A stretch of 64,000 bases of DNA from Oleiagrimonas sp. (GCA_035690885.1 DASSKC010000062.1:733-64732), one strand, 5' to 3'. Numbered from the stretch's first letter, positions 41,123 to 59,980 are shown. The notes: generated from the sequence alone by a model not told the origin. Translations and numbers: made by a program.

Positions 41123-41123
41123 T

Positions 41124-42260: not shown

Positions 42261-43145
42261 TCAGTGGTTGCGCTGGACGATGTACTCGGCCATCCAGCGC
42301 AGTGGGTCGGCACTGTCTCCCAGTGGCTGCAGCGCCTGCATGGCGTCGGAGTAGGCGCTGTCCGCGCGTTGCCGCGCCGCGTCCAGGCCCAGCAGCCCCG
42401 GCCATGTCGACTTGCCGTGCGCGGCGTCGGCGCCGCCGGCCTTGCCGGTCAGGTTTTCATCGCCTTCGACGTCGAGCAGATCGTCGCGGATCTGGAAGGC
42501 CAGGCCGATGCTGTCGGCGAAATCGCCCAGCCGGCGACGCACGCCGGCATCCAGGCCGGGCAGGGCATCGCAAGCGAGCGCGACGGCGGCACGGATGAGG
42601 CAGCCGGTCTTGCGGCGATTGAGTTCTTCCAGTTCCGCCAGTTCGACATGTCGCGATTCGGCTTCCAGATCCATGGTCTGGCCGCCGGTCATGCCCAACG
42701 ACCCCGTGGCTTGCGCCAGTGTGCGGACCATGCCGATGCGACTGGCCGACGCGCTCTTGCCATCGGCCAGTACTGCGAACGCCAGCGTTTGCAGGGCGTC
42801 GCCGGCGAGAATGGCGGCTGCCGTGCCGTAGGCCTTGTGCACGGTGGGACGGCCACGCCGAAGCGCGTCGTCATCCATCGAGGGCAAGTCGTCGTGTACC
42901 AGCGAAAAACCGTGGATCATCTCGACCGCACACGCCGGATCGTCCAGCCGGTCCGGATCGATGCCGAGAACTTCGCCGGTGGCATAGCACAGCAAGGGAC
43001 GTACGCGTTTGCCACCACCGAGAATGGCGTAGCGCATGGCCTCGTGGAGCGATGACGGTGCCGTGGCGGCGGCGGGGAGACGGGCGTCCAGTGCGCGCTC
43101 GGCGCGGTCGACGTAATCGGGTACCCGGCTCTCGAAACTGGTCAT
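42261..43145 (-). CDS. ispA: (2E,6E)-farnesyl diphosphate synthase (polyprenyl synthetase)
   Basis: FARM LVHDDLPSMDDDALRRG and SARM FQIRDDLLD. I start at MTSFES (ATG 43145). Confidence 0.9.
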   Translation of the reverse strand: MTSFESRVPDYVDRAERALDARLPAAATAPSSLHEAMRYAILGGGKRVRPLLCYATGEVLGIDPDRLDDPACAVEMIHGFSLVHDDLPSMDDDALRRGRPTVHKAYGTAAAILAGDALQTLAFAVLADGKSASASRIGMVRTLAQATGSLGMTGGQTMDLEAESRHVELAELEELNRRKTGCLIRAAVALACDALPGLDAGVRRRLGDFADSIGLAFQIRDDLLDVEGDENLTGKAGGADAAHGKSTWPGLLGLDAARQRADSAYSDAMQALQPLGDSADPLRWMAEYIVQRNH

Positions 43146-43342
43146 GCTGTCCACTGGTGGCCCTTTGCAAATGGCGATGCGGGTCATGGTGCAATGCGTC
43201 GTGGCGGATGTCCACTGGCCGGCATGCGGCGTATTCATTCAGTTGGTGTCCAGCGCCTGAAGCCGTTTGCTTGGTACCGTTTTTTTGTCGCAAGCGTTAT
43301 CGTATATCAGCGATACGTCAGCACACATGAGGAGTCAGCGTC

Positions 43343-44425
43343 ATGCGCATGTCCGTTGCCCTCGCTCCTTCTGCCAAGTATCTGCATGACTATCAGGACG
43401 ATATCCTGAAGAAGGTGTCGAGGACATTTGCCCTGACCATCCCGCAACTGCCCAAGCCGTTGCGACGGGTGGTCACCAATGCCTATCTGTTGTGCCGCAT
43501 TGCCGACACCATCGAGGACGAGTCGGCATTGTCGGTCGAGCAGAAGCAGCATTTCCACGAGCTGTTTTTGAGTGTGGCCGCTGGCGATGCCGATGCGGCG
43601 GCTTTCGCCGACACGCTGACACCGCTGCTGGCCAATGACGCACTGGAGGCGGAAAAGGACCTCATTGGCCACACCGATGCGGTGGTCGCGGTCACGCGTG
43701 GTTTCAACGACAACCAGCAGGCCGCCCTCAATCGATGCCTGACCGTGATGTGCCGCGGCATGCCGCGCTACGAACGTCACGCCAGCATCGAGGGGTTGAG
43801 CAACCAGGCGTCACTGGATCGTTATTGCTACTACGTCGCCGGTGTGGTTGGCGAGACGCTCACGGCGCTGTTCTGCGATTACTCCGAGTCCATCAATCGT
43901 CACCGCGAACGCATGATGCAGCTGGGTCTTTCCTTTGGCCAGGGACTGCAGATGGTCAACATCCTCAAGGACTTCTGGGAGGACCATGGGCGTGGCGTGT
44001 GCTGGTTGCCGCAGAATCTGTTTGCGCGGATGGGCGTCAATCTCGGCCAAGTCGACCGCAACCATTACCAGCCAGGCTTCGGCGAAGCCTACGCCAACCT
44101 GATCGGCGTTGCCTACACGCACCTGCGCAACGGGTTCGAGTACACGCTGATGATTCCCGAAAAGGAATCGGGCATTCGTCGCTTCTGCCTGGTCGCATTG
44201 GCGCTGGCCGTGCAGACGCTGCAGCGCATCCATGAGAATCCGGATTTCCGTTGCGGCAGCGATGTGAAAGTATCGCATCGCGTGGTGACCAATACGCTCA
44301 TCATGACGCGTCTGTTCGCCGGCTATGATCGTGTCCTGCGACGCTGGTTCGGGCGTCTCGGTCGCGGGCTGCCAATGCAGACGCTGGTGGCTGACTGGTC
44401 GGAGAAGTTGCGCCAGATACGTTGA
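43343..44425 (+). CDS. sqs: Squalene synthase (single-enzyme SQS type; squalene/phytoene synthase family)
   Basis: SRTFALTIPQLP, Asp-rich CRIADTIEDE and NILKDFWED. The gene lies immediately upstream of shc. Confidence 0.85.
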   Translation: MRMSVALAPSAKYLHDYQDDILKKVSRTFALTIPQLPKPLRRVVTNAYLLCRIADTIEDESALSVEQKQHFHELFLSVAAGDADAAAFADTLTPLLANDALEAEKDLIGHTDAVVAVTRGFNDNQQAALNRCLTVMCRGMPRYERHASIEGLSNQASLDRYCYYVAGVVGETLTALFCDYSESINRHRERMMQLGLSFGQGLQMVNILKDFWEDHGRGVCWLPQNLFARMGVNLGQVDRNHYQPGFGEAYANLIGVAYTHLRNGFEYTLMIPEKESGIRRFCLVALALAVQTLQRIHENPDFRCGSDVKVSHRVVTNTLIMTRLFAGYDRVLRRWFGRLGRGLPMQTLVADWSEKLRQIR

Positions 44426-44483
44426 CCGGCGCGCCCGGCGATCCATTGCAACATGTTCAACATGTGTCGGAGGAGGAAGCTTG

Positions 44484-46454
44484 ATGCGTGATGTCTCCGT
44501 GGAACCGTCCATGGCCACGGGCGGCGGGGCAGGGGAAGGTCTAGTGGACCGCCATCGTCTTGATGCCGCCATCGCCGCGACCCGCAACGCATTGCTGCAA
44601 AGTCAGCACGACAATGGCCATTGGTGCCACGAGCTGGAGGCCGATTGCACCATCCCGGCTGAGTACGTGTTGATGCTGCATTATTTCGGCGAGCGCGAAC
44701 CCGAACTGGAAGCGAAGATCGGCAACTACCTGCGGGCACGCCAGGGCAAGGACCATGGCTGGCCCTTGTACGAGTCGGGCGCGATGGACGTCAGTTGCAG
44801 CGTCAAGAGTTATTATGCGCTCAAGCTGATCGGCGACGATCCGGATGCCGAGCACATGCAACGGGCGCGCCAGGCGATTCGCGCGCGTGGCGGCGCGGCT
44901 CGGGCCAACGTGTTCACGCGCATGACGCTGGCGTTGTTCGGCGAGTTGCCCTGGCGCGGCGTTCCGGTGGTGCCGGTGGAGCTGGTGTTGCTGCCGCGCT
45001 GGTTTCCCGTCCATCTGCTGAAGATTTCCTATTGGTCGCGCACCGTGGTCACGCCCCTGGCTGTTTTGTGCAGCCTCAAGCCGCGGGCGGCCAATCCACT
45101 TGGCGTCGGCATCCGTGAACTGTTCATCACGGCGCCCGAAGACGAGCGTCATTACTTCGATCCGCCGCGCACGCTGCTGGCGCGGTTGTTCCTGTGGCTG
45201 GACCGTTTTGCACACGTACTGGATGCGCATCCGCCCAAGTGGTTGCGTCGGCGCGCGGTCAAGCGTGCCATGGACTGGATGCTGCCGCGGTTGAATGGCG
45301 AGGACGGGCTCGGGGCCATTTTCCCGGCCATGGTCAATGCCTGCGAGGTGCTGGCGCTGCTGGGTTACGACCAGAACGAATCGCCCTTGCGCGAAGCGCG
45401 TCAGTCGGTGCGCAAGCTGTTGATCGAGAAGGACACCGAAGCATATTGCCAGCCCTGCGTGTCACCCGTGTGGGACACGGGTCTGGGCTGTCTGGCCATG
45501 CAGGAGGATGCGCGCTCGCATCCGCTGCCCGAGCTGCAGCAGTCCGTGACTCGGGCACTTGATTGGTTGCACGAGAAACAATTGACCGACGAGGACGGCG
45601 ACTGGACGCTGACCCATCCCCGGCTGCCCGGCGGCAGCTGGGCGTTCCAGTACAACAACGCGGCGTATCCCGATCTGGACGACACCGCGGTCATGGCCTG
45701 GACCATGCTTCGCGGAGGTGCCGACGGAGCCGACACCAGATACGCCGAGTCCATCCAGCGCGCGGCCGATTGGCTGATCGGCATGCAGTCGCGCAACGGC
45801 GGTTTTGCCGCGTTCGATTCGGACAACACGCATTACTGGCTCAACCAGATCCCCTTTGCCGATCATGGCGCACTGCTCGACCCGCCGACCAGCGATGTCA
45901 GCGCACGCGTGCTGACTTTTCTGTCTGCCCTGGCCAGACCCGGGGACAAGCGCGCCCGTACTCGGGTCCTCGCGTACTTGCGCAACAGCCAGACCGACGC
46001 GGGTTGCTGGTTCGGGCGCTGGGGTACCAACTACATCTACGGCACCTGGTCGGCTTTGATGGCGCTGGAGGCCGCTGGCGTCGATCACGGTGATGCCGCG
46101 GTGCGGCGCGGGGTGGCGTGGCTGAAGCAGTGCCAGCGTGCCGATGGCGGCTGGGGCGAGACCAACGATACCTACATGGATCCGGGCCTCGCCGGCACCG
46201 ATTCGCGCAGCAATGCCGCACAGACCGCGTGGGCGCTGCTGGGTCTGATGGCAAGCGGCGAGGGCGGCAGCGAGGCGGTCGCGCGCGGCGTACAGTGGCT
46301 CGTGCAGACGCAGGACCAAGACGGCCGCTGGCACGACAAGGGTTTCAACGCACCGGGCTTTCCGCGCGTGTTCTATCTCAAGTATCACGGTTACAGCCAT
46401 TATTTTCCGTACTGGGCGCTGGCACGTTATCGCCGGTGCACGGTCGATGGCTGA
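44484..46454 (+). CDS. shc: Squalene-hopene cyclase
   Basis: Catalytic DxDDTA (PDLDDTAV) and several QW repeats (QRADGGWGE, QSRNGGFA, QDQDGRWHD). SD 'ggaggagga' lies before ATG 44484. Confidence 0.95.
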   Translation: MRDVSVEPSMATGGGAGEGLVDRHRLDAAIAATRNALLQSQHDNGHWCHELEADCTIPAEYVLMLHYFGEREPELEAKIGNYLRARQGKDHGWPLYESGAMDVSCSVKSYYALKLIGDDPDAEHMQRARQAIRARGGAARANVFTRMTLALFGELPWRGVPVVPVELVLLPRWFPVHLLKISYWSRTVVTPLAVLCSLKPRAANPLGVGIRELFITAPEDERHYFDPPRTLLARLFLWLDRFAHVLDAHPPKWLRRRAVKRAMDWMLPRLNGEDGLGAIFPAMVNACEVLALLGYDQNESPLREARQSVRKLLIEKDTEAYCQPCVSPVWDTGLGCLAMQEDARSHPLPELQQSVTRALDWLHEKQLTDEDGDWTLTHPRLPGGSWAFQYNNAAYPDLDDTAVMAWTMLRGGADGADTRYAESIQRAADWLIGMQSRNGGFAAFDSDNTHYWLNQIPFADHGALLDPPTSDVSARVLTFLSALARPGDKRARTRVLAYLRNSQTDAGCWFGRWGTNYIYGTWSALMALEAAGVDHGDAAVRRGVAWLKQCQRADGGWGETNDTYMDPGLAGTDSRSNAAQTAWALLGLMASGEGGSEAVARGVQWLVQTQDQDGRWHDKGFNAPGFPRVFYLKYHGYSHYFPYWALARYRRCTVDG

Positions 46455-47118
46455 TATCGGCGTGGTGGCGGCCTTGCCGGCGGAAGCCGCGACATGGCCG
46501 GCGGACAGCGGATTTCAGGTCGTCGTGGCCGGTCCGGGCATGCAACGCGCCACGGCTGCCGCGCGAGGCCTGTTGGCGGCGGGAGCCACGAGGTTGATCA
46601 GCTGGGGCGTGGCCGGTGGCCTGACGGCTCGACTGCGGCCGGGTGATCTGGTGCTCGCCGATCGGGTGGCATCCGCCGACGGCGTGCAGATACCCGATCG
46701 AGACTGGTGCAGCGAGATGGTCGCGAGGCTGCAACCGCTGGAATGTCCGCTCACGGTCGGAAGCGTCTGGACGCATGCGCATGCGGTCACATCACTCGCG
46801 GAAAAACAACGGCTGGCGGCCAATGGCCATGCCATCGTCGACATGGAGGCCGCCGCCGTGGCGTCCGTGGCGCGTGCTGCCGGCGTGCCGTTCGTGGTCA
46901 TCAAGGCGGTGTGCGACCCGGCCGGTCGCGCGCTTCCGGCTTGCGCGCCACGGTTGTTGCACGCCGATGGTCGCGTGCGGGTCAGCGCCGTGGCCATGAC
47001 CCTGGCAAGTGGTCCGCGCATGTGGCGCCATCTGCGGCAAATGCACCGCGATTTCGATGCTGCTTGCGGCGGTTTGCGCAAAGCGGCCGCATGCTTGTCG
47101 GTATCATGTCCGCCATGA
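46447..47118 (+). CDS. hpnG: Hopanoid-associated phosphorylase/nucleosidase HpnG (PNP_UDP family)
   Basis: DMEAAAVA nucleosidase motif. 8-nt overlap with shc. The position between shc and hpnA is the canonical one. Confidence 0.85.
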   Translation: MADIGVVAALPAEAATWPADSGFQVVVAGPGMQRATAAARGLLAAGATRLISWGVAGGLTARLRPGDLVLADRVASADGVQIPDRDWCSEMVARLQPLECPLTVGSVWTHAHAVTSLAEKQRLAANGHAIVDMEAAAVASVARAAGVPFVVIKAVCDPAGRALPACAPRLLHADGRVRVSAVAMTLASGPRMWRHLRQMHRDFDAACGGLRKAAACLSVSCPP

Positions 47119-48116
47119 GCGACTTGGTACTGGTCACCGGCGCCAACGGTTTTGTCGGTTCGGCCGTGGTGCGCAACCTGCTTGAGGCGGGTTATCGGGT
47201 GCGTGCGCTGGTACGTGCCAGCAGCCGCATGGACAACCTTGCCGGTGTGGATGCCGAGCCGGTGATCGGCGATTTGCGTGACCCCGATTCGCTGGCCGAC
47301 GCCATGCGCGGTTGTCGGGGCGCGTTCCATGTGGCGGCCGACTATCGCCTGTGGACGCCCGATGCCGCGGCCACCGAAGCCATGTACGCCAGCAATGTCG
47401 AGGGCAGCCGCAACGTCCTGCGTGCGGCGTCGCGGGCCGGCGTCGCGCGCATCGTCTATACCAGCAGCGTGGCCACGCTGGGTCTGCATGCCGACGGGTC
47501 CCCGGCGGACGAAACCACGCCGGTCACGTTGGACGCCATGATCGGAGATTACAAGCGCTCCAAGTATCTGGCCGAACAGGCAGTCGAGGAGTTGGCCGAG
47601 TCCGAACATCTCGACGTGGTCACCGTGCATCCGGCGGCACCGGTCGGTCCGCGCGACATCAAGCCGACACCGACCGGGCGCATGGTGCTGGACGCCGCGC
47701 GCCGGCGCATGCCGGTGTACGTCGATACCGGCCTGGACATCGTGCATGTCGACGATGTGGCCGAAGGTCACCGCCTGGCATACGAGCGCGGCACCGGCGG
47801 CCGGCACTACATCCTCGGCGGCGACAATCTCAGTCTGCGCGAGATTTTGATCGAGGTGGCCGTGATCACCGGTCGGCATGCCCCCTGGATGCGCATTCCG
47901 CATGCGCTGGTACTGCCGCCGGCGCATCTCGCCGAGCTCCTGGCCCGGTTCAGCAAGCGTGAACCGGCGGTGACCGTGGCTGGCGCCCGGTTGGCCCGAA
48001 AGCACATGTATTTTTCGCATCAGCGCGCCGCATTCGAGCTCGGATATGCCCCCGGACCGGCCCGCGAGGCGCTTGCCGATGCGGTGAAATGGTATGCCGA
48101 GAACGGCCGGTTATGA
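47115..48116 (+). CDS. hpnA: Hopanoid-associated NAD-dependent sugar epimerase/dehydratase HpnA
   Basis: VLVTGANGFVGSAV Rossmann motif and YKRSK (YxxxK). ATGA overlap with hpnG. Confidence 0.85.
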   Translation: MSDLVLVTGANGFVGSAVVRNLLEAGYRVRALVRASSRMDNLAGVDAEPVIGDLRDPDSLADAMRGCRGAFHVAADYRLWTPDAAATEAMYASNVEGSRNVLRAASRAGVARIVYTSSVATLGLHADGSPADETTPVTLDAMIGDYKRSKYLAEQAVEELAESEHLDVVTVHPAAPVGPRDIKPTPTGRMVLDAARRRMPVYVDTGLDIVHVDDVAEGHRLAYERGTGGRHYILGGDNLSLREILIEVAVITGRHAPWMRIPHALVLPPAHLAELLARFSKREPAVTVAGARLARKHMYFSHQRAAFELGYAPGPAREALADAVKWYAENGRL

Positions 48117-48270
48117 GCACGTTTAGGCGTAAAAGCGTAGAATAGGGCAAGTCGGGCACTGGTTTTACACCCATCCTCCGGAGCGAGGCCACGACCACTC
48201 GGTCAAGCATGACAGGCTCTCCGGATCCGACGCCGGCGGGCCGACACCGTTTGGATGCGAAGGAGTCCAG

Positions 48271-49263
48271 ATGACAGCGATTGCGCAAGCGCAACCCAAT
48301 ATCGCGCTGGTCAAATACTGGGGCAAGCGGGATACGGCACTCAACCTGCCTGCGGCCGACTCGCTGTCCATCACCCTGGCGTCCCTGTCCACGCGGACCG
48401 AAGTCACTTTCGACCCGACGCTTGAACACGATGTGCTGCTGCTCAATGGCGCGCCCGATGCGCGGACGCTGGCGCGTGCCAGTGCGTGTCTGGACGTGCT
48501 GCGCGAGCGCGCCGGCAATCCGTGCCGTGCGCATGTGGATACGCGCAACAACTTTCCCACCGCTGCGGGACTGGCCTCATCGGCGTCGGGCTTTGCCGCG
48601 CTGGTGATGGCGGCCAACGCGGCGCTTGGCTTGCCGGAAGATCGACCATGGCTGTCCACGATCGCCCGTCAGGGATCGGGGTCGGCGGCGCGTTCGCTGT
48701 ATGGCGGCTTCGTGCACATGCATGCCGGAAGCCGCGAAGATGGTGCCGACGCGCATGCCGAGCCGTTGCTGGAAGCCGGGGCCTGGCCGCTCGAAGTCGT
48801 GGTCGCCGTGACCACGCGCAAGGCCAAGGCCGTGGGCTCCGGTGAAGGCATGGAGCGGACGCGACGTACCTCGCCGTTCTACGGCCAATGGGCCGGAACG
48901 GTCGCCGACGACATCGTGCTGGCGCGCGCGGCGGTTGCGGCACGCGACTTCGAGGCACTGGCCGCTGTCAGCGAGCACAGCTGCTTGAAAATGCATGCGT
49001 TGATGTTGTCCAGCCAGCCGCCGTTGATGTACTGGTCGCCGGCAACGCTGGCCTGCATGCAGATGGTTCGCCAATTGCGCGAGCGTGATGGTCTGGGCGT
49101 GTTTTTCACCGTCGATGCCGGTCCCCAGGTCAAGGCCGTTTGCCTGCCGGCCGATGCCGCGAAAGTCGCGGCCGCGTTGCGCGAGGTGTCCGGCGTGGAA
49201 GCGATTCTGCGCAGCGCATTGGGCAAGGGGGCGCGCAACGTTCCCATGGCCGAGGTGGCCTGA
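48271..49263 (+). CDS. mvaD: Diphosphomevalonate decarboxylase
   Basis: NIALVKYWGKRD, GLASSASGFAAL (GHMP motif), FTVDAGPQV. SD 'aaggag' lies upstream. Confidence 0.9.
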   Translation: MTAIAQAQPNIALVKYWGKRDTALNLPAADSLSITLASLSTRTEVTFDPTLEHDVLLLNGAPDARTLARASACLDVLRERAGNPCRAHVDTRNNFPTAAGLASSASGFAALVMAANAALGLPEDRPWLSTIARQGSGSAARSLYGGFVHMHAGSREDGADAHAEPLLEAGAWPLEVVVAVTTRKAKAVGSGEGMERTRRTSPFYGQWAGTVADDIVLARAAVAARDFEALAAVSEHSCLKMHALMLSSQPPLMYWSPATLACMQMVRQLRERDGLGVFFTVDAGPQVKAVCLPADAAKVAAALREVSGVEAILRSALGKGARNVPMAEVA

Positions 49264-50324
49264 TGCACGCGGTGCATGCCAGCGCCCCGGCCAAGCTGGT
49301 TGTCGCCGGCGACTACGCGGTGCTCGAAGGCGCCCCGGCAGTCGTCATCGCGCTGGATCGGCGCGCGCATGTCGAAGTCGAGTCTTTGGCGGACACGGAT
49401 GCCGCGTTCTGCATTGACGCCCCGGACCTCGACATTCGTGGTGCGCAAGGCCGGCTGGAGGGCGAGCGCATCACCTGGTCGTCCGACGCCGATCGTTTGA
49501 CGCTGGTGACCGCGGTGCTGCAATACCTGGCGCAGCACGGCGCGGCGCCGCGTTCCGCGCACGTCACGCTGGACACGCAAGCGTTCTTTGCCGGCGACGG
49601 CGCCAAGCTCGGCCTGGGTTCCAGCGCGGCCCTGACCGTCGCGTTGACGGCCGCCGTGAACACGGCCAACGATGCAGAGGCGGGCGATCTTGCGGCCATG
49701 ATCGGCATGCATCGGCGCATGCAGGGCGGTCGTGGCAGTGGCCTGGATATTGCCGCCGCCTTGATGGGGGGCACGTTGATTTACCGCTTGAGCGATGGAC
49801 AAGCGCAAACCGAGCGTGCCCGCTGGCCGCACGAGCTGGGCCTGTGCTGCGTCTGGTCCGGACGCTCGGCTTCGACGGGCTCGGCATTGGCGCAACTGGC
49901 CGATTGGCGGTCGCGGCATACGGCTGCTTACGCCACCCACATGCAGGCCTTGTCGGATGCTGCCGCCGAGGTGGCTGTGGCCCTGCGTGCAGGCAGCGGC
50001 GCCGACATGGCCACGGGCATGTCCGAGTATGCCGATATGCTGGCGCGCTTCGGCGAAACCGTCGGCATCGACATCGTGTCGGCTGAACACCGCGCACTGG
50101 CCGCCATGGCCAATGACTGCGGCGTGGTGTACAAAAGTTGCGGTGCCGGCGGTGGCGACGTCGGCATGGCCGTGGCCGTGGATGATGATCGACTTTCCCA
50201 TTTCGCACGGCAGGCTGCGAGCGCCGGTTTCCGCATCGTGGAAACCGGTATCGACGAGCGCGGCCTGTCGGTGCAAACAGCAAACACGAGTCACAGGAGA
50301 CAACCATGGACAACGTACGCGTGA
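49263..50324 (+). CDS. mvaK2: Phosphomevalonate kinase (GHMP kinase)
   Basis: APAKLVVAGDYAVLEG, GLGSSAALTVAL, KSCGAGGGD. TGATG overlap with mvaD. Confidence 0.8.
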   Translation: MHAVHASAPAKLVVAGDYAVLEGAPAVVIALDRRAHVEVESLADTDAAFCIDAPDLDIRGAQGRLEGERITWSSDADRLTLVTAVLQYLAQHGAAPRSAHVTLDTQAFFAGDGAKLGLGSSAALTVALTAAVNTANDAEAGDLAAMIGMHRRMQGGRGSGLDIAAALMGGTLIYRLSDGQAQTERARWPHELGLCCVWSGRSASTGSALAQLADWRSRHTAAYATHMQALSDAAAEVAVALRAGSGADMATGMSEYADMLARFGETVGIDIVSAEHRALAAMANDCGVVYKSCGAGGGDVGMAVAVDDDRLSHFARQAASAGFRIVETGIDERGLSVQTANTSHRRQPWTTYA

Positions 50325-52615
50325 ATGATGGCGAACGCGATCCCGGAGCCAGGACATCGACATCGCGCTCGGCACGCTTTCCGGGCTTCTACAAGCTGTC
50401 GGTTGCCGAGCGGGTCAGGCTGCTGAGCGGGCGCGGACTGCTGTGCCGCGACGATTTTCGTGCGCTGGCCAGTGGGCGCCACAAGCTGACGGTGGACAAG
50501 GCCGACAAGATGATCGAGAACGTCATCGGCGTACTCGGCATGCCGGTCGGACTGGGCCTGAACTTCCTCATCAACGACAAGGACTACGTGATACCGCTCG
50601 CCGTCGAGGAGCCCTCCATCGTTGCGGCCCTCAGTTCGGCGGCCAAGCTGGCGCGCAAGGGTGGCGGGTTTCGCACCCGCAGCACCAAGCCGATCCTGAT
50701 CGGGCAGGTGCAGGTGGTGGACGTGGCGCACGCGAGCAAGGCGCAGGCCGCGCTGCTGCGGCGCAAGGACGAGCTCATCAACCTCGCCAACAGCCTGCAT
50801 CCGAACATGGTCGCACGTGGCGGCGGCGTCGAGGACGTCGAGGTCATGGTCCATTCCGCGCCCGACGGCAAGCGTGACATGGTCGTCGTGCATCTGCTGG
50901 TCAACACCTGTGACGCCATGGGCGCCAACCTGGTCAATACCATGTGCGAGGGCGTGGCGCCGCTGGTGGAAACCATTACCGGCGGCAAGGTGTTCCTGCG
51001 CATCCTGTCCAATCTGACCGACCGTGCGCTGGTGTGGGCCGAGGCCGTGATTCCGGTCGAGGCGCTGGCCGGCAAGGGCCGCGACGGTGCCGAAGTGCGC
51101 GACGGCATCATCCTGGCCAACGACCTGGCCATCGTCGATCCGTACCGTGCGGCAACCCACAACAAAGGCGTGATGAATGGCGTCGATGCCGTGGCCTTGG
51201 CCACCGGCAACGATTGGCGCGCGCTGGAAGCGGCCGCGCATGCGTATGCCGCGCGCGGCAAGAGCTACACGTCGCTGACGCGCTGGTACAAGAACGACAA
51301 CGGCGATCTGGTCGGCAGCATCGAAATGCCGATGAAGGTCGGTACCGTGGGCGGCAACCTGCAGTCCAACCCGACTGTCGGCATCAACCACCGCCTGCTC
51401 GGCATCGACAGCGGCCGCGAGTTGGCCGAGGTGATGGGCGCCGTGGGTCTGGCGCAGAATTTCTCGGCCCTGCGTGCGCTGGTCACCGACGGCATCCAGC
51501 AGGGCCACATGACCTTGCACGCGCGCAGCGTGGCAATGGCGGCCGAGGCGACACCGGAGATGTTCGATACCGTGGTCGAGCGGCTGCTCGAAGACGGTGA
51601 GATCAAGATCTGGAAGGCGCGCGAAATCATCGCCGAACTGGGTGGCAAGGCGCGTCCGCGCCTGGTCGCCGGCAAGGACAAGCGCGAGGACGAGGCGTCC
51701 TGGTCGGCCGGTCACGGCAAGATCATCCTGCTTGGCGAACATGCCGTGGTACATGGCCGCCATGCCATCGCCGCGCCGGTGCCGCTGGCGATCAAGGCGC
51801 GCGTCGATGATGCGGACGAAGGCGTCACCTTGATGATCCCGCGCTGGGGCGTCGAGCAGCGCCTGCAACAGCACCTCAACCATCCGGGATCGTTCCTGCA
51901 GTCGCTGGCCATGTTGATCGACAAGCTCGAGCTGGGCGATCGGGCGATGGAAGTGCGCGTGTATCCCAATGTGCCGCGTGCCATGGGGCTGGGTGGTTCG
52001 GCGGCGTTGGCCGTGGCCGTGATCCGTGCGCTGAACCGGCATTTCAGTCTGTCGTTGAGCGAGGCGGATATTTGCCAGCTGGCTTTCGAGTGCGAAAAGA
52101 TCGCGCATGGCACGCCATCGGGTATCGACAACACCGTCGCCACGTACGGCAAGCCGTTGCTGTACCGCAGTGGCAATCCGGCGGAAGTGGAAACCCTGCA
52201 TCTGACCGAGTCGTTGCCACTGGTCATCGGCCTGTCCGGTACCGAAAGCCTGACCGCCAAGATGGTGGCGCGCGTTCGCCGCGCGTGGGAAAACAACAAG
52301 CCGCTTTACGAGCGCATCTTCGACGAAATCGACACTTTGACCATGCATGCGCTGGATGCGCTCAAGGCACACGATCTGGCCCAACTGGGCGAGTTGATGA
52401 ATGTCTGCCAGGGCCAGCTCAATGCGCTGCAAGTGTCCAGCTGGGAGCTTGAGGAATTGATGCAGATTGCACGCGACAACGGCGCCACCGGCGCCAAGCT
52501 GACCGGTGGCGGCGGTGGCGGTTCGATGATCGCGCTGTGCCCCGATGGCACGCAACAAGTAGTGCAGGCGATGCACAACGCGGGCTACCAGGCGATGGAG
52601 GTGCGCTTTGGCTGA
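50306..52615 (+). CDS. Apparent bifunctional class II HMG-CoA reductase (about aa 1-445) fused to mevalonate kinase (about aa 468-769)
   Basis: The HMGR part has EEPSIVAA, DAMGANLVNTMCE, THNKGVMNG, GTVGG, QQGHMTLHAR. A charged linker GGKARPRLVAGKDKREDEASWSA follows. The MK part has GHGKIILLGEHAVVHG, PRAMGLGGSAALAVAV, KLTGGGGGGSMIAL. It is a single uninterrupted 769-aa ORF. Confidence 0.85.
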   Translation: MDNVRVNDGERDPGARTSTSRSARFPGFYKLSVAERVRLLSGRGLLCRDDFRALASGRHKLTVDKADKMIENVIGVLGMPVGLGLNFLINDKDYVIPLAVEEPSIVAALSSAAKLARKGGGFRTRSTKPILIGQVQVVDVAHASKAQAALLRRKDELINLANSLHPNMVARGGGVEDVEVMVHSAPDGKRDMVVVHLLVNTCDAMGANLVNTMCEGVAPLVETITGGKVFLRILSNLTDRALVWAEAVIPVEALAGKGRDGAEVRDGIILANDLAIVDPYRAATHNKGVMNGVDAVALATGNDWRALEAAAHAYAARGKSYTSLTRWYKNDNGDLVGSIEMPMKVGTVGGNLQSNPTVGINHRLLGIDSGRELAEVMGAVGLAQNFSALRALVTDGIQQGHMTLHARSVAMAAEATPEMFDTVVERLLEDGEIKIWKAREIIAELGGKARPRLVAGKDKREDEASWSAGHGKIILLGEHAVVHGRHAIAAPVPLAIKARVDDADEGVTLMIPRWGVEQRLQQHLNHPGSFLQSLAMLIDKLELGDRAMEVRVYPNVPRAMGLGGSAALAVAVIRALNRHFSLSLSEADICQLAFECEKIAHGTPSGIDNTVATYGKPLLYRSGNPAEVETLHLTESLPLVIGLSGTESLTAKMVARVRRAWENNKPLYERIFDEIDTLTMHALDALKAHDLAQLGELMNVCQGQLNALQVSSWELEELMQIARDNGATGAKLTGGGGGGSMIALCPDGTQQVVQAMHNAGYQAMEVRFG

Positions 52616-53189
52616 GGCATTGACGCAAACCGATCCGGTGGTCTCGTTTGATTCGGAACAATTGATCCTGGTCAATTCGGACGACCACGAAATAGGGTAC
52701 AAGGACAAAGGTGCCTGTCATGACGGTCACGGCATCCTGCATCGCGCCTTTTCGTTGTTCGTGTTCAATCGAAACGGCGAGTTGCTGTTGCAGCAGCGCG
52801 CGAAGGACAAGCGCCTGTGGCCCGGTTACTGGGCCAATACGTGCTGCAGCCACCCGCGCCGCGGCGAAAGCATGGACGATGCCACGGCCAGGCGTCTGGC
52901 CGAGGAAATGGGCATGCGCTGCGACCTGCGCTACCTGTACAAGTTCGAATACCAGGCCGATTATGGTGATCTGGGTGCCGAACACGAGTTGTGCCGGGTT
53001 TACGTGGGCCAGTCCGACAGCCCCGTATCGGTCAACGTCAACGAGGTCGAAGCCTGGCGCTTCGTCTCGGCGGCAGAGCTGGACGAGGAAATCGAGGCCC
53101 ATCCGGAGCGTTTCACGCCATGGCTGAAAATGGAATGGCAACGATTGCGCAATGAGTTCAATGCAGTTTTGCCACTGAGTAGTGGCTGA
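52608..53189 (+). CDS. idi: Isopentenyl-diphosphate delta-isomerase, type 1 (Nudix)
   Basis: HRAFSLFVFN..GELLLQQRA..K..WPGYWANTCCSHP..GE. TTG start with 'ggag' 7 nt upstream. 8-nt overlap with the fusion ORF. Confidence 0.85.
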   Translation: MAEALTQTDPVVSFDSEQLILVNSDDHEIGYKDKGACHDGHGILHRAFSLFVFNRNGELLLQQRAKDKRLWPGYWANTCCSHPRRGESMDDATARRLAEEMGMRCDLRYLYKFEYQADYGDLGAEHELCRVYVGQSDSPVSVNVNEVEAWRFVSAAELDEEIEAHPERFTPWLKMEWQRLRNEFNAVLPLSSG

Positions 53190-53291
53190 ACCCGTTGATA
53201 CGGTTGTTTTGACTACACCCTGGTATGCGCCTAGGCTGAAAACCGGACGAGAGAAAAAACATTTTCGAATATCGCATTGAAGGAGGTCATC

Positions 53292-54410
53292 ATGAGCATA
53301 CCCCTCGTGCAAAAGTACCGCGTGGCTCGCTACGTGGTCGGCAAGAAACTCGCGGGTGTCAAACGATACCCGCTGACGTTGATGCTGGAACCGCTGTTCC
53401 AATGCAACCTGGCCTGTCCCGGTTGCGGCAAGATCGACTACGAAGATGACATCCTGCGCCGACGCATGAGCGTCGAGGATGCCTTGCATGCGGTCGATGA
53501 ATGCGGTGCGCCCATGGTGTCGCTGCCCGGTGGCGAGCCCTTGATCCACAAGGAAATCGACCAGATCGTCGAGGGCATCATCGCGCGCAAGAAGTTCGTC
53601 TATCTTTGCACCAATGCGATTCTGCTGAAGAAAAAACTCGACCTGTTCAAGCCGTCACCGTATCTCACGTTTTCCGTGCATCTGGACGGCCTGCGTGAGG
53701 AGCACGACAAGTCGGTCGATCGCGAAGGTGTTTTCGACACGGTCGTGGAGGCAATTTCCGAAGCGTTGAAACGCGGCTTTCGTGTCACCGTCAATTGCAC
53801 GCTGTTCACGGGCGAAGATCCGGCCCGGGTGGCGCAGTTCTTCGATTACGTGACCGAGCTGGGCGTGGAGGGCATCACCGTCTCGCCGGGCTACAGCTAC
53901 CAGCACGCCGCGCGTCAGGATGTGTTCCTGCCACGCAATGCCAGCAAGGATCTGTTCCGCGACATCTTCCGCCATGGCAAGCAGCGCAAGGACAAATGGC
54001 GCTTCAACCAGTCCGGCCTGTTCCTGGACTTTCTCGCCGGCAACCAGACCTACCAGTGCACGCCGTGGTCAATGCCTTGCTACAACATGTTCGGCTGGCA
54101 AAAGCCGTGCTATCTGCTGGTGGACGAGGGCTACGTGCCCACCTTTGATCAATTGATCAACGACACCGACTGGGATCATTACGGCTTCGGCCACAATCCC
54201 AAGTGCGACAACTGCATGGCCCATTGCGGCTACGAAGGCACGGCCGTCGACGACACCTTCAATCATCCGTTGAAGGCCTTGTTCGAGTCCATGCGCGGAC
54301 CGCGCACCGAAGGCCCGATGGCGCCGGAGCTGCCGGTTCTGTACAGCACTCGTGAGAGTGACCCGGCCGACATGCGGGTGGCGGTCACCGGTCCCGAAGA
54401 CCACCACTGA
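53292..54410 (+). CDS. hpnH: Adenosyl-hopene transferase HpnH (radical SAM)
   Basis: CNLACPGC is a CX3CX2C cluster. The C-terminal Cys-rich region (CTPW...CYLL...KCDNCMAHCGYE) is conserved in HpnH. SD 'aggagg' lies 5 nt before ATG 53292. Confidence 0.9.
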   Translation: MSIPLVQKYRVARYVVGKKLAGVKRYPLTLMLEPLFQCNLACPGCGKIDYEDDILRRRMSVEDALHAVDECGAPMVSLPGGEPLIHKEIDQIVEGIIARKKFVYLCTNAILLKKKLDLFKPSPYLTFSVHLDGLREEHDKSVDREGVFDTVVEAISEALKRGFRVTVNCTLFTGEDPARVAQFFDYVTELGVEGITVSPGYSYQHAARQDVFLPRNASKDLFRDIFRHGKQRKDKWRFNQSGLFLDFLAGNQTYQCTPWSMPCYNMFGWQKPCYLLVDEGYVPTFDQLINDTDWDHYGFGHNPKCDNCMAHCGYEGTAVDDTFNHPLKALFESMRGPRTEGPMAPELPVLYSTRESDPADMRVAVTGPEDHH

Positions 54411-54615: not shown

Positions 54616-57600
54616 TCACGGCGTGCGATCGCTTCGACCCATCGGCGTGCCTTCGTCTCCTTCGCTTTCGAACGGCTGCGCTTCGATGGCTCCGGCATGC
54701 GTGTCGAGCTTGTCTCCCAGCAGGCGCCGGATGACCACGTAGAACACCGGAACGAACAGCACGCCGAGCACCGTGGCGAACAGCATGCCGCCAATCACGC
54801 CCGTGCCGATGGCGTGGCGGGCATTGGCGCCGGCACCCGTGGAGATGGCCAGCGGCAACACGCCGAGGATGAACGCCAGTGACGTCATCAGGATGGGACG
54901 GAAGCGCAAGCGTGCCGCTTCGACCACCGCTTCGCGCAGCGAGCGCCCGGCAGCTTGTTCGGCCACCGCGTATTCGATGATCAGGATGGCGTTCTTCGCC
55001 GCCAGGCCGATGATCGTGATCAATCCGATCTTGAAGTAGATGTCGTTGGGCAGGCCACGCAGCATCGTGAATGCCACCGAGCCCAGGACACCCAACGGCA
55101 CGATCAACAATACCGAGATCGGGATCGACCAGCTTTCGTACAGCGCGGCCAGACACAGGAAGGCCACGATCAACGACAAGCCGAACAGCAGCGGCGCGGT
55201 ATTGCCGGACATCACTTCCTGGTAGGACTGTCCGGTCCAGTCGATGGCAAAGCCCTCCGGCAAGTCCTCGTTGACGATCTTCTGCATCGCCGCCATGGCC
55301 TGACCGGAACTGTAGCCTTCGGCGGCCGATCCGTTGATCTGGATGGCCGAGTAGCCGTTGTAACGGGTGCGGTCCGGTGGCGCGACTTCCCACTCGGGAT
55401 GGACCACATTGGAGATCGGGACCATGTTGCTGCCGTCGTGATCCGGATCGGCAATCAGGCTGCTTGGCGTGTAGAAGTGGGTCAGTGCCTCCGGCCCCAT
55501 GCGATACGGTGCCTGGGCCTGCATGATCACGCGTTTGGTGCGTCCCTCGGCGCTGAAGTCGTTGATGTACACCGGTGCCAGCATCAGGCGCACGGCGTTG
55601 TAGACATCGGTGACCGACAAGCCCATGGATTGGGCCTGGGTGCGGTCCACATTGAGTTTGAGCTGCGGCGCATCGGGCAGGGCATTGGGACGCACTTGTG
55701 TCAGCACGGGGTTTTTCCGGGCCGCGGCCAGGAGGGTGTGCTCGGCCTTGGTCAGTGCGGCAAAGCCCTTGCCGGAGCGGTCCTCCAGGTACATGGCGAA
55801 ACCACCGAACTGGCCCAGTCCCTGCACGGTCGGCACGTTGAGCATGAAGACGGTGGCGTCATGGATGCCCATGAACAGCTTGCCGTTGTTGCGTGCAATG
55901 TATTGTTGCGCCGTGACCGAGCGTTCGTCCCAGTCTTTCAGTTGCACGAAGGCCATGCCGACGTTTTCACCGGAGCCGACGAAACTGAAACCGCTGACCT
56001 GGAAAACGTTGGCCGTAGCCGGGTCCTTGTCGAGGATTTTCCGGATCTTCGCCATCACGTCTTCGGTACGGTGCAGCGTTGCGCCGGGCGGGAGCTGCAC
56101 GATGATCATCGCGTAGCCCTGGTCTTCCTCGGGCAGGAAACTGGTCGGCATCTTGACGAACAGGAAGCCGCAAAGCACTGCCAGCAACACGAACGCGATC
56201 ATCCAGCGCGGCGCGTGGCCGGCGGCCTTGTGCACGCGGTGCGCATAGTTGTTCGTGGTCCAGTCGAAGAACTGGTTGAACTTGCGGAACACGATGTTCT
56301 TTTTCTTGTCGTGATCGTGTTTGATCAGCTGCACGCACAGGGCCGGCGTGAACGACAAGGCCAGGAACGCCGAGAACACCATCGACAGGGCAATGGTCAG
56401 CGCGAACTGCTGGTAGATGGCACCGACGCTGCCGCCTTGCAGCGCACTGGGAATGAACACGGCGGCCAACACCACCGTGATCGCCACGACGGCGCCGGTA
56501 ATCTGCCCCATCGCCTTGCGCGTGGCCTGCTTGATCGGCAGTTTGTCTTCGCGCATCACGCGCTCGACGTTCTCGATCACCACGATGGCGTCATCGACCA
56601 GGATGCCGATCGCCAGCACCATGCCGAACATCGTCAGCTGGTTGATGGTGAATCCCATGGCCGTCATGCCCAGGAACGTGCCCAGCAGGGCGACCGGAAT
56701 GACCAGGGTCGGGATGATGGTCGCGCGGATGTTCTGCAGGAACAGCAGCATCACCAGGAACACCAGCACGATGGCCTCGGCCAGCGTCATGATCACTTCT
56801 TCGATGGCGATGTTGACGAAGGTGGTCGAGTCGTACGGCACCAGCCAGGACAGTCCGGCCGGGAACGAGCTGGACAGCTCGTTCATCTTGTTCTTGACCT
56901 CTTCGGCCACGGTCAGGGCATTCGCGCCGCTTTGCAGCTGGATCGCGAAGGCTCCGGTAGGTGCGCCGTTGTAGGTGGAATTGAAGCCGTAATGTTGCGC
57001 GCCGAACCCGATCTTGGCCACATCCTTGAGGCGCACGGTGGTGCCGTCGGCATTGGCGCGCAAGATGATGTTGCCGAACTGCTCGGGCGTGTTGAATCGT
57101 GACTCGGTGGTCACGTTGGCGGTGAAGCCCTGGCTGTCGGGGGATGGCATGGCGCCGATCGAGCCGGCCGCAAACTGCACGTTCTGCGATTGCACGGCGT
57201 TGAGCACCTGGGTCGCGGACAAGCCGTAACCGTGCAGCTTGTCCGGATTGAGCCAGATGCGCATGGCGTAACCGGAGCCGAACTGGTTCACGTTGCCGAC
57301 GCCGGGCAGGCGCGAGATCTGGTCGATGATGTGTACGGCGACGTAATCGTTGATCGCCTTCTGGTCCATCGTGCCGTCTTCAGAGCGCAATGCCACCAGC
57401 ATCAGGAAGCCGGCGCTGGCCTTTTGCACGGTCACGCCTTGTTGCGTCACTTCCTTGGGCAGGCGCGGTGCAGCCAGCGAGACCTTGTTTTGTACCTGCA
57501 CCTGGGCGATGTCGGCGTCGGTCCCGGCGGCGAACGTCAGGTTGATCTGGACGCGTCCGGTCGAGCTCGACGAGGAGCTGAAGTACAGCAGGTTGTCGAT

Positions 57601-57813
57601 GCCGGTCAGTTGCTGCTCGATCACCTGGGTGACCGTTTTCTCGAGCGTTTCGGCACTGGCACCGGGGTAGCTGGCGCTCACATTGACCTGTACCGGCGCG
57701 ATGCTCGGGTACGACTCCACACCGAGGTTGAGAATGGAGATGACGCCGCCAAGCGATATGAGGATCGCGACGACCCAGGCAAAGACCGGCCTGTCGATGA
57801 AAAACTTGGGCAT
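54616..57813 (-). CDS. RND efflux transporter permease (HAE1, AcrB/MexB-like)
   Basis: 1065 aa. N-terminus MPKFFIDRPVFAWVVAILISLGG and a typical 12-TM, two-large-loop organisation. Confidence 0.95.
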   Translation of the reverse strand: MPKFFIDRPVFAWVVAILISLGGVISILNLGVESYPSIAPVQVNVSASYPGASAETLEKTVTQVIEQQLTGIDNLLYFSSSSSSTGRVQINLTFAAGTDADIAQVQVQNKVSLAAPRLPKEVTQQGVTVQKASAGFLMLVALRSEDGTMDQKAINDYVAVHIIDQISRLPGVGNVNQFGSGYAMRIWLNPDKLHGYGLSATQVLNAVQSQNVQFAAGSIGAMPSPDSQGFTANVTTESRFNTPEQFGNIILRANADGTTVRLKDVAKIGFGAQHYGFNSTYNGAPTGAFAIQLQSGANALTVAEEVKNKMNELSSSFPAGLSWLVPYDSTTFVNIAIEEVIMTLAEAIVLVFLVMLLFLQNIRATIIPTLVIPVALLGTFLGMTAMGFTINQLTMFGMVLAIGILVDDAIVVIENVERVMREDKLPIKQATRKAMGQITGAVVAITVVLAAVFIPSALQGGSVGAIYQQFALTIALSMVFSAFLALSFTPALCVQLIKHDHDKKKNIVFRKFNQFFDWTTNNYAHRVHKAAGHAPRWMIAFVLLAVLCGFLFVKMPTSFLPEEDQGYAMIIVQLPPGATLHRTEDVMAKIRKILDKDPATANVFQVSGFSFVGSGENVGMAFVQLKDWDERSVTAQQYIARNNGKLFMGIHDATVFMLNVPTVQGLGQFGGFAMYLEDRSGKGFAALTKAEHTLLAAARKNPVLTQVRPNALPDAPQLKLNVDRTQAQSMGLSVTDVYNAVRLMLAPVYINDFSAEGRTKRVIMQAQAPYRMGPEALTHFYTPSSLIADPDHDGSNMVPISNVVHPEWEVAPPDRTRYNGYSAIQINGSAAEGYSSGQAMAAMQKIVNEDLPEGFAIDWTGQSYQEVMSGNTAPLLFGLSLIVAFLCLAALYESWSIPISVLLIVPLGVLGSVAFTMLRGLPNDIYFKIGLITIIGLAAKNAILIIEYAVAEQAAGRSLREAVVEAARLRFRPILMTSLAFILGVLPLAISTGAGANARHAIGTGVIGGMLFATVLGVLFVPVFYVVIRRLLGDKLDTHAGAIEAQPFESEGDEGTPMGRSDRTP

Positions 57814-57822
57814 GATCGATCC

Positions 57823-59091
57823 TCAGGATTTGGTCGACGGCTTGCCGGCGGCTTCGGATGATGCCGCAGCGGCAGGCGGGGTTGACGCGGCCGCAGCCGG
57901 GGTGACGACGGTCTTGCCCTGGGCCGTTTTTTGACCCGCGGGTTTGGCATTGCCACTGACGGGTTTGACCACCGCGCCGACATGCGCCTTGGGAATGCCG
58001 CCCACGATCACGCGGTCGCCGGCGGCCAGACCCTTGGTGACGACCCAGTTCGGTCCCTGCATGCCATCAAGCGTGACGTTCTTGCGCACGACCTTGTTGT
58101 CCTTGCCGACGGTGAGTACATAGGCGCTGGAGGTATCGCGCTGGACCGCATTCTGCGGTATCAGGAACGCCTGATTGAGCGAACCCATGTCCACTTCGAG
58201 CGTGGCGTACATGCCGGGCAGCAGCACATGTTCGGGGTTGGGGACCAATGCACGCAGCGTGACACCACCCGTGGCCGGGTCCACCGAAGCGGCGGCGAAG
58301 TCCAGCGTGCCGGTATGCGGGTAGGTGGTGCCACCGGGCAGTTTCAGCGTGACGGAAGCTTTGCTGGTGCCTTTCAACGTGGCCTGGCCGCTGACCTGCT
58401 TGGCGCGCAATTGCTGCAGCTCGCCGACCGGCATCGAGAACGTGACGTAGATCGGATCGATCTGTCGCACCGTGGTCAGCAAGGTGGCCGTACCCTGGCC
58501 AACCAGCGCGCCCTCGGTCACCTGTTGTTTGCCGGCGCGACCGGCGATGGGTGCGCGGACCGTGGCATAACCGAGCTTGATGCGGGCATTGTCGACCTGG
58601 GCCTTGGCTGCCGTGACGGCGGCGGCGGCGGTGCGCTTTGCGGCCAGCGCGTTGTCCATCTCCGACTTGGAGATGTAGCCCTTGGGCACCAGTTTGCTCG
58701 CGCGTTCGGCGTGCATCTTGGCATTGGCGTAGGTCGCCTGCGCCTGGGCCAACTCGGCCTGGGCTGCATTCAAGGTGGCCTGGAACGGTGCCGGGTCGAT
58801 CTTGAACAGGACCTGGCCCTCGTCCACATACGTGCCTTCGTTGTAGGTGCGCTTGAGCAGTACGCCACCGACGCGTGCGCGTACATCCGCGGTGCGAAAC
58901 GCCGACAGACGTCCGGTGGCTTCGCGCACCAGAGGTACCGTCTGCGGTTGCACGCGAGTTACCTGCACACTCGCCGGCGGCATTTGACGTTGCTTGTTCT
59001 GGCCGCCGCAGCCGGCCATCAGGGCCACGGCCGTTGCGACGATGAAAACCCGCGATGCGCGGGACGGAATATGACTGCGAGGGGAGGTCAT
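57823..59091 (-). CDS. RND efflux periplasmic adaptor (AcrA/MexA-like lipoprotein) with Ala/Pro-rich C-terminal tail
   Basis: Lipobox LMAGC. It has the coiled-coil and lipoyl regions typical of the HlyD_D23 family. The gene lies 9 nt upstream of the permease. Confidence 0.9.
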   Translation of the reverse strand: MTSPRSHIPSRASRVFIVATAVALMAGCGGQNKQRQMPPASVQVTRVQPQTVPLVREATGRLSAFRTADVRARVGGVLLKRTYNEGTYVDEGQVLFKIDPAPFQATLNAAQAELAQAQATYANAKMHAERASKLVPKGYISKSEMDNALAAKRTAAAAVTAAKAQVDNARIKLGYATVRAPIAGRAGKQQVTEGALVGQGTATLLTTVRQIDPIYVTFSMPVGELQQLRAKQVSGQATLKGTSKASVTLKLPGGTTYPHTGTLDFAAASVDPATGGVTLRALVPNPEHVLLPGMYATLEVDMGSLNQAFLIPQNAVQRDTSSAYVLTVGKDNKVVRKNVTLDGMQGPNWVVTKGLAAGDRVIVGGIPKAHVGAVVKPVSGNAKPAGQKTAQGKTVVTPAAAASTPPAAAASSEAAGKPSTKS

Positions 59092-59743: not shown

Positions 59744-59980
59744 AGTTTAGAATTGGTTTGTGCCATCGTCAATGCTTGTCATTGTCGCGTTCTTGTGAGC
59801 AATTTCGTGCACTTTGCGTGAGGACGGGTTTTATCCCGGATGTCATTCGATTCGGTTCGATGACGGATGGTTGAATGAAAGCCGCCGCGTGACCGCGAAA
59901 AACCCGCATATACTGGTTTCGCATGTCGCGCGGGGCTATGCTTGCCATTCCATTTTTCCCCACCCCAAGAAGTATTGATC

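Follow-up and report, generated by a model that had tools for sequence, protein, structure and literature searches.

The gene at positions 50306 to 52615 of a 64,000-nucleotide stretch of DNA from Oleiagrimonas sp. (GCA_035690885.1 DASSKC010000062.1:733-64732; this whole stretch is called the window below) joins a class II 3-hydroxy-3-methylglutaryl coenzyme A (HMG-CoA) reductase (HMGR) and a mevalonate kinase (MK) in one polypeptide, and on the sequence comparisons reported here we consider it highly probable that this fusion is a true two-function enzyme that serves biosynthesis in a bacterial mevalonate operon. Oleiagrimonas belongs to the family Rhodanobacteraceae in the class Gammaproteobacteria, and a protein 100% identical to that of the window is deposited at NCBI from an Oleiagrimonas sp. 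metagenome-assembled genome (MAG; P0001). In the proposed scheme, the N-terminal HMGR would reduce HMG-CoA to mevalonate, probably with NADPH or with both nicotinamide cofactors, and the C-terminal kinase of the GHMP type would phosphorylate that mevalonate with ATP. Phosphomevalonate kinase (PMK), diphosphomevalonate decarboxylase (MVD) and a type 1 isopentenyl diphosphate isomerase (IDI) would then complete the route to isopentenyl diphosphate (IPP) and dimethylallyl diphosphate (DMAPP), a pool on which the farnesyl diphosphate (FPP) synthase, squalene synthase, cyclase and Hpn enzymes encoded nearby would draw for hopanoids. The benefit of the fusion would lie in obligatory 1:1 co-expression and co-localisation, and the ATP-driven removal of mevalonate would commit the reversible reductase toward biosynthesis; a structured channel is not needed for either the co-expression or the commitment benefit.

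The gene lies on the + strand with an ATG start and 769 codons followed by TGA, and the ORF listing gives this open reading frame (ORF) of 769 amino acids as the longest on the + strand at the 50306 position. An AlphaFold2 model was built on an alignment of 43 sequences, with a mean predicted local distance difference test score (pLDDT) of 77. The parts of the gene are as follows.

50295..50299, + strand: Shine-Dalgarno-like AGGAG, 6 nt before the HMGR-MK ATG, by sequence inspection
50306..52615, + strand: fused HMGR-MK gene
50306..50371, + strand: poorly conserved N-terminal extension, residues 1-22 (pLDDT below 50; homologue matches begin at about residue 23)
50372..51643, + strand: class II HMGR domain, residues 23-446, flap helices included (TIGR00532 and PDB alignments)
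51644..51700, + strand: inter-domain linker, residues about 447-465, GKARPRLVAGKDKREDEAS (PDB alignment ends and pLDDT trough)
51701..52612, + strand: MK (GHMP) domain, residues 466-769 (TIGR00549 and alignments to MK structures)

By Pfam, HMG-CoA_red covers residues 33-406 (E 7e-109), GHMP_kinases_N residues 539-614 and GHMP_kinases_C residues 682-760, and among the solved-structure matches no PDB chain covering both halves was found. The original prediction, made by a model from the sequence alone, had proposed a single 769-residue polypeptide of class II HMGR and MK, and this is borne out by Pfam, by NCBIfam and by the orthologue loci; the motifs it named (EEPSIVAA, DAMGAN, THNKG, GTVGG and GHMTLHAR, together with the three GHMP motifs) are all present in the translation. 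Its in-frame join of about 20 residues likewise stands, with the position moved from nt 51641-51710 to 51644-51700, since the linker is now placed at residues about 447-465 by the ends of the PDB alignments and the pLDDT trough at 448-462. The domain limits, earlier given as residues 1 to about 445 and about 468 to 769, become about 23-446 for HMGR and about 466-769 for MK.

The N-terminal half is a complete class II HMGR with intact catalytic residues, as far as its sequence can tell. It scores 409.7 bits with the NCBIfam class II model TIGR00532 (cut-off 259.95) over residues 16-406 and 364.6 bits with PF00368 (cut-off 27) over profile positions 2-368 of 368, and it falls far under the threshold of the class I reductase model TIGR00533 (52.5 bits vs a cut-off of 441.8). 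Two class II structures, 6dio (E 1e-119) and the P. mevalonii enzyme 1qax (E 4e-116), match residues 23-448 from one end to the other. The flap domain is kept, as the alignment reaches residue 422 of the 428 in 1qax and residue 428 of the 429 in 6dio, and the model places flap helices at residues 396-412, 420-430 and 435-445. From the 1qax alignment, the catalytic residues E83, K267, D283 and H381 of P. mevalonii correspond to E102, K287, D303 and H401 of the window protein, all four of them invariant in an alignment of 43 orthologues.

Judged in the same way, the C-terminal half is a complete MK whose motif residues are intact. The NCBIfam model TIGR00549 gives 249.8 bits against a cut-off of 163.05 at residues 470-744, over profile positions 2-276 of 276, and residues 466-762 align end to end with the mevalonate kinases 2x7i (4e-39), 2hfs and 6mde, the E values to solved mevalonate kinases ranging from 1e-36 to 1e-40. 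The motif I lysine is K472 in GHGKIILLGEH, the phosphate loop GLGGS565AA lies within PRAMGLGGSAA, and E597, the catalytic base D608 in PSGIDN and the KLTGGGGGG loop follow; K472, S565, E597, D608 and the glycine loop are invariant among the same 43 orthologues. By the Nei-Gojobori method, comparing the window gene with seven orthologues, the ratio of nonsynonymous to synonymous substitution rates (dN/dS) is 0.05-0.19 in the HMGR half and 0.11-0.19 in the MK half, and hence both halves are under purifying selection. For residues 1-22 the ratio is about 0.5-1.1.

The fusion is conserved well beyond this genome. A locus scan with one genome per species returned 80 loci, of which 67 hold both halves, and in all 67 species-representative genomes the two halves share a reading frame, uninterrupted by a stop where they meet; one stop was counted, in L048, but it falls upstream of the ORF start, and the L048 ORF spans both halves. 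Hence orthologues are not always two genes, which the original prediction had named as one way in which it might fail. The 67 include the cultured Rhodanobacter lindaniclasticus DSM 17932, Rhodanobacter thiooxydans LCS2, Wenzhouxiangella sp. XN79A and Marinobacter gelidimuriae BF04_CF-4, as well as MAGs of Nevskiaceae, Woeseiaceae, Halomonas, Nakamurella and another actinobacterium, Myxococcales and Rhodohalobacter. In a search of 5.8 billion proteins, each of the 120 best relatives has the three Pfam domains and is 67-90% identical to the window protein, with sizes of about 745-805 residues except for one of 1131, and an exhaustive HMMER search of 1.84 billion cluster representatives has 18 full-length and 11 fragmentary HMGR-MK clusters (50% identity) among its best 150 matches. 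The HMGR-MK architecture is therefore widespread in Gammaproteobacteria and sporadic elsewhere, and the search for both domains in one polypeptide that had been proposed as a check, with its taxonomic spread, comes out in favour of the fusion. It is common but not universal, because a Burkholderiaceae MAG (L075) carries the kinase unfused, in the order MVD-PMK-MK-IDI.

Regarding the cofactor, the discriminating position of the reductase is His165, within SLHPNMVARGGG, which equals D146 of P. mevalonii and D154 of R. pomeroyi. The same stretch reads RKDQLLNSLGGG in P. mevalonii, AVDPVLVGLGGG in 9v7y (probably R. pomeroyi) and QAYPSIVKRGGG in S. pneumoniae, and S163-L164-H165-P166 is invariant in the 43 orthologues. 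Where the ribose 2'-OH is bound, class II HMGRs that depend on NADH carry an Asp (D146 of the P. mevalonii enzyme and D154 of the R. pomeroyi one), and Tyr or His takes that place in those that depend on NADPH, from S. aureus, L. monocytogenes, S. pneumoniae and E. faecalis (PMC12292504). The wild-type enzyme of R. pomeroyi prefers NADH, its D154K variant has NADPH activity raised 53.7-fold, and the HMGRs of P. mevalonii, D. acidovorans and B. cenocepacia are classed as NAD(H)-dependent (PMC12292504). Because an invariant His165 stands in place of the Asp of the NADH-type enzymes, the sequence points to NADPH or dual cofactor use and to a biosynthetic role of the reductase.

The two domains meet at a junction of quite different character. 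In the model they are well folded, with pLDDT below 50 at residues 448-462 and the kinase beginning directly after the linker; since the predicted template modelling score (pTM) is only 0.48, no confident relative placement of the domains is predicted. The linker of about 20 residues shows a dN/dS of about 0.1-1.3, and the gap between the aligned halves spans 9 to 59 residues across orthologues. The segment from the last flap helix to the kinase GxGK differs in length, holds many P, A, E, Q, S and G residues and has no conserved motif. In three divergent fusions (the loci L064 and L066, from Woeseiaceae and Gammaproteobacteria MAGs, and the protein P0137) the last flap helices are absent and the kinase follows 9-21 residues past the catalytic-His helix. 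Since the linker is disordered in the prediction, variable in length and sequence and near neutral in its evolution, it has the marks of a flexible tether rather than those of an evolved interface, and by the model the domains are most likely separate folding units, with the tether leaving from the C-terminal flap of the reductase. Class II HMGRs and MKs each form dimers, so assemblies of higher order may result from the fusion.

The surroundings of the gene are biosynthetic. The genes between 42 and 55 kb, apart from the fusion itself, are listed below.

42261..43238, - strand: FPP synthase, divergent (NF045485 FPPsyn, 332 bits vs 275)
43343..44425, + strand: squalene/phytoene synthase family, squalene synthase candidate (Pfam SQS_PSY, E 4.5e-52; squal_synth 114 bits, under cut-off)
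44325..46454, + strand: squalene-hopene cyclase (Pfam SQHop_cyclase_N and SQHop_cyclase_C, E 1e-119 and 1e-128)
46447..47118, + strand: HpnG-like phosphorylase (Pfam PNP_UDP_1; TIGR03468 150 bits, under cut-off 187)
47127..48116, + strand, start approximate: HpnA, hopanoid-associated sugar epimerase (TIGR03466, 465 bits vs 368)
48271..49263, + strand: MVD, operon gene 1 (Pfam MVD-like_N and MDD_C; TIGR01240, 283 bits vs 171)
49263..50324, + strand: GHMP-type kinase, probable PMK (Pmev_kin_Gr_pos is the best model at 107.8 bits, under its cut-off of 165.7; position conserved)
52620..53189, + strand: type 1 IDI of the NUDIX fold (Pfam NUDIX; NF002995, 171 bits vs 127)
53277..54410, + strand: HpnH, adenosyl-hopene transferase, radical SAM (TIGR03470, 537 bits vs 225; Pfam Radical_SAM and DUF3463)

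MVD, PMK, HMGR-MK and IDI make four tightly packed genes, with the fusion third, in a block between hpnA and hpnH. The ATG of the PMK-like gene shares one base with the MVD stop, its 3' end overlaps HMGR-MK by 19 nt, and the candidate TTG starts of IDI at 52608 and 52620 either overlap or closely follow the HMGR-MK stop. As the neighbouring operon genes overlap or nearly abut in this way, the fusion probably arose by loss of the stop codon between adjacent genes. The order MVD-PMK-[HMGR-MK]-IDI is kept in related loci; HpnH lies downstream of the operon, after IDI, in 30 of them, and squalene-hopene cyclase lies upstream in about 20, mainly of Rhodanobacteraceae and Wenzhouxiangellaceae. Because the operon sits inside a hopanoid cluster, it most likely supplies squalene and hopanoid precursors in this genome. 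A promoter and terminator scan of 42-55 kb gave counts at chance level.

The cluster holds one gene of the SQS/PSY family, for which squal_synth beats the HpnC and HpnD models, all three being under cut-off; with a single such gene whose best NCBIfam match is the single-enzyme squalene synthase, the cluster may make squalene by the one-enzyme route, not by HpnCDE. Upstream of the hopanoid genes, at 38871-42206, there are a 427-residue ORF with no Pfam or NCBIfam match, a membrane protein of the LPG_synthase_TM family, which we take to resemble HpnL, and a GT28-like glycosyltransferase, and these three ORFs could be further hopanoid-modifying genes. Directly downstream of hpnH, on the - strand at 54616-59711, an AcrB-type resistance-nodulation-division (RND) pump, a membrane-fusion protein and a TetR regulator look like a drug-efflux set; an AcrB homologue occupies the same place in L001, L005 and L016. 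Farther on (59936-63805, - strand) an ORF of 1289 residues has no Pfam match at E <= 1e-4, and it may not be a real gene, as it is absent among the ORFs passing the codon-position GC filter.

Several other explanations of the fused gene deserve to be weighed, and the two that deny it a double function can be set aside most easily. It might be held that an assembly or sequencing indel in a metagenome-assembled contig merged separate hmgR and mvk genes, as the window matches a MAG contig and a single indel could merge two operon genes that overlap or abut. We regard this as extremely improbable and reject it on the frame kept at the junction in all 67 genomes: these are independent at the species level and four are cultured isolates, so the merger that had been put forward as a caution against the original prediction is disfavoured; the fusion sequences come from several public collections (NCBI, JGI/IMG, ENA and Logan); and the linker differs in length by lineage with the frame preserved, in junction DNA free of homopolymer runs or other indel-prone features. 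It might also be held that one half is dead and serves a regulatory or scaffolding purpose, for example as a kinase-like sensor of downstream phosphorylated intermediates that controls the reductase, since a second GHMP kinase directly upstream might make one kinase fold redundant. However, that upstream kinase is PMK-like, the fused one passes the MK equivalog cut-off, and no other mevalonate kinase candidate was found in the operon; with the catalytic and nucleotide-binding residues of both halves invariant and dN/dS below 0.2 in each, the reading of a dead domain is rejected as very improbable.

More weight attaches to the direction of catalysis and to the purpose of the tether, and here the points that tell against a biosynthetic, hopanoid-linked enzyme should be put together. 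The NCBI model is named "degradative"; the closest structures (P. mevalonii, D. acidovorans, B. cenocepacia and probably R. pomeroyi) carry the Asp; the argument from His165 is drawn from a small comparative set in one paper and is not a tested rule; several Rhodanobacter loci have no hopanoid neighbours; and no gene for HMG-CoA synthase or thiolase was found either in the window or, in any of the 80 loci, within 10 kb of the fusion. The last search applied Pfam to 40 window ORFs and scanned the clustered recurrent neighbours of the fusion loci, together with a motif-pair regular expression over the 80 loci, which is a weak test. One may therefore think of an oxidative, degradative reductase like MvaA of P. 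mevalonii, the fusion then being a branch-point or salvage enzyme by which imported mevalonate is either oxidised to HMG-CoA for carbon or phosphorylated for isoprenoids. Such a role would agree with the NCBIfam name, with the NAD(H)-dependent enzymes among the best PDB matches, with the lack of a linked HMG-CoA synthase in any locus and with the binding of mevalonate by both domains, yet we consider it improbable. In the catabolic mvaAB operon the degradative reductase MvaA is linked to HMG-CoA lyase. The window protein departs from the MvaA type in residue and in linkage: a His shared by all 43 orthologues takes the place of Asp146, in the manner of the NADPH-dependent biosynthetic HMGRs of class II, and the ORFs of the window that were scanned around the gene gave no domain of the HMG-CoA lyase type. 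Moreover, its operon partners PMK, MVD and IDI, and the hopanoid genes after them, are all biosynthetic. The "degradative" label itself is inherited from the TIGR00532 model and ought not to be taken as function. Independent support for the biosynthetic direction comes from a 2026 survey that assigns the mevalonate pathway alone to Wenzhouxiangella and Woeseia, both carriers of the fusion, and both pathways to Rhodanobacter (PMC13001223 supplement). As to the source of HMG-CoA, genomes without HmgS or Pmvk fell short of its threshold (PMC13001223), which implies an unlinked HmgS in these three genera and, in the mevalonate-only carriers, an essential reductive role; the HMG-CoA synthase gene is probably unlinked. 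Granted a biosynthetic enzyme, the fusion could have been selected for true channelling, with mevalonate passing from under the flap straight to the site of the tethered kinase. The two steps are consecutive, the kinase is attached to the very flap by which the active site of the reductase is closed, and both HMGR-MK and MK-HMGR orders arose, which suggests a recurrent advantage. We still think this rather unlikely, and the channelling that the original prediction had suggested gains no support from a linker predicted to be disordered, 9-59 residues long, unconserved in sequence and nearly neutral, or from an interdomain arrangement with no confident interface (pTM 0.48). In addition, mevalonate is stable and non-toxic, unfused relatives occur (L075), and HMGR is also fused to enzymes of non-adjacent steps, namely PMK, IDI, FPP synthase, squalene synthase and terpene synthase, so that co-expression or co-localisation fits better than a dedicated channel.

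These further fusions share the same class II HMGR core as the window protein and differ in domain order or in extra domains; those named first here are known only as predicted proteins of metagenomes or MAGs. P0076 is a PMK-HMGR-MK protein of 1131 residues, 69% identical to that of the window; P0122 and P0124 (from a Desulfobacterales MAG and a Pseudomonadota MAG) are HMGR-MK-IDI; P0142 of Myxococcota is a reversed MK-HMGR whose kinase lies above the equivalog cut-off; and P0177 and P0185 are predicted to be HMGR-FPPS-SQS, with FPPS and SQS for FPP synthase and squalene synthase. P0152, P0161 and P0175 are predicted proteins of the form PMK-like-HMGR. Stop-codon loss between adjacent genes appears to have given rise to such fusions repeatedly. 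A rough neighbour-joining tree of the HMGR domains, star-like and unbootstrapped, separates the main HMGR-MK clade from the reversed forms and the PMK-HMGR ones, which suggests more than one fusion event. Class II HMGR also forms the N-terminal domain of nine predicted fusions (P0150, P0157, P0167, P0172, P0177, P0179, P0181, P0185 and P0251), where the partners are polyprenyl synthase, FPP plus squalene synthase, squalene synthase plus HpnA-like epimerase, the epimerase alone, terpene synthase and a squalene-hopene-cyclase-like domain. Five others (P0164, P0195, P0204, P0215 and P0223) bear a C-terminal extension of about 330-370 residues; none of the five extensions has a Pfam match, and NCBIfam likewise gives none for P0164 and P0195.

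In a broader reading, HMGR-MK would be the most frequent form within a large and unstudied range of fusions built on class II HMGR, with MK, PMK, IDI, FPP synthase, squalene synthase, HpnA-like epimerase and terpene synthases as partners; these would act as covalent metabolons that channel or kinetically commit HMG-CoA to a dedicated mevalonate route for hopanoids or terpenoids, even in bacteria such as Rhodanobacter whose housekeeping isoprenoids are left to the methylerythritol phosphate (MEP) pathway. We put it forward tentatively, as a minority possibility. As for the HMGR-MK fusion itself, it is real, conserved, widespread, under-annotated and apparently uncharacterised, and it is less surprising than the original prediction held, because fusions of pathway neighbours are common, HMGR-MK is frequent in the databases and channelling is unsupported.

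With the rate-limiting reductase naturally joined to the next enzyme, the fusion offers a test case of whether tethering alone speeds or commits mevalonate flux. The placing of the lower mevalonate pathway inside a hopanoid cluster, together with the MEP and mevalonate pathways both reported for Rhodanobacter, suggests a private supply of hopanoid precursors, and the same nesting of operon in cluster (42261-54410 of the window) is seen again in many loci of Rhodanobacteraceae and Wenzhouxiangellaceae. For engineering of the mevalonate pathway, HMGR-MK and its relatives with three domains provide compact parts. At the same time, hundreds of entries in the databases bear just the name "HMG-CoA reductase, degradative", which hides the kinase and probably gives the wrong catalytic direction.

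No natural HMGR-MK fusion was found in the full-text literature searched, which covers few subscription journals, so that an earlier mention is possible. This is consistent with the earlier statement that no characterised HMGR-MK fusion was known, and so is a 2026 review of the diversity of bacterial isoprenoid pathways, where MvaE and IspDF are the only fusions listed and IspDF is called common. Compared with known systems, the HMGR half resembles the stand-alone class II HMGRs (1qax; 6dio of D. acidovorans; 6p7k of B. cenocepacia; 3qae and 5wpj of S. pneumoniae) in its full-length alignment, flap included, and in the four catalytic residues, whereas those enzymes are single-domain proteins of 423-458 residues and the window protein runs on into a kinase. 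The closest of them by sequence are NADH-type enzymes with Asp; the window protein instead has His165-Pro166, which resembles the Tyr-Pro of the NADPH-dependent S. pneumoniae enzyme. Similarly, the MK half shares the three GHMP motifs and the catalytic Lys and Asp with stand-alone GHMP mevalonate kinases (2x7i, 2hfs of Leishmania, 6mde and 4hac), which are free-standing proteins of about 300-330 residues, whereas its own N-terminus, with the catalytic-lysine motif, is tethered to the reductase flap. IspDF of the MEP pathway is another widespread natural fusion of two isoprenoid-precursor enzymes, but it belongs to the other pathway, has other folds and joins the non-consecutive IspD and IspF steps. 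The closest characterised system is MvaE of Enterococcus, the acetoacetyl-CoA thiolase-HMGR of Enterococcus faecalis, likewise a natural bacterial bifunctional enzyme of the mevalonate pathway with a class II HMGR, and its PDB chains 7m1z and 7m3h match the HMGR half of the window at about E 4e-85. Neither Pfam nor NCBIfam found a thiolase domain in the window protein; in MvaE the HMGR is C-terminal and its partner, the thiolase, catalyses a non-adjacent upstream step, whereas the window protein has the HMGR on its N-terminal side, paired with the enzyme that acts in the very next step.

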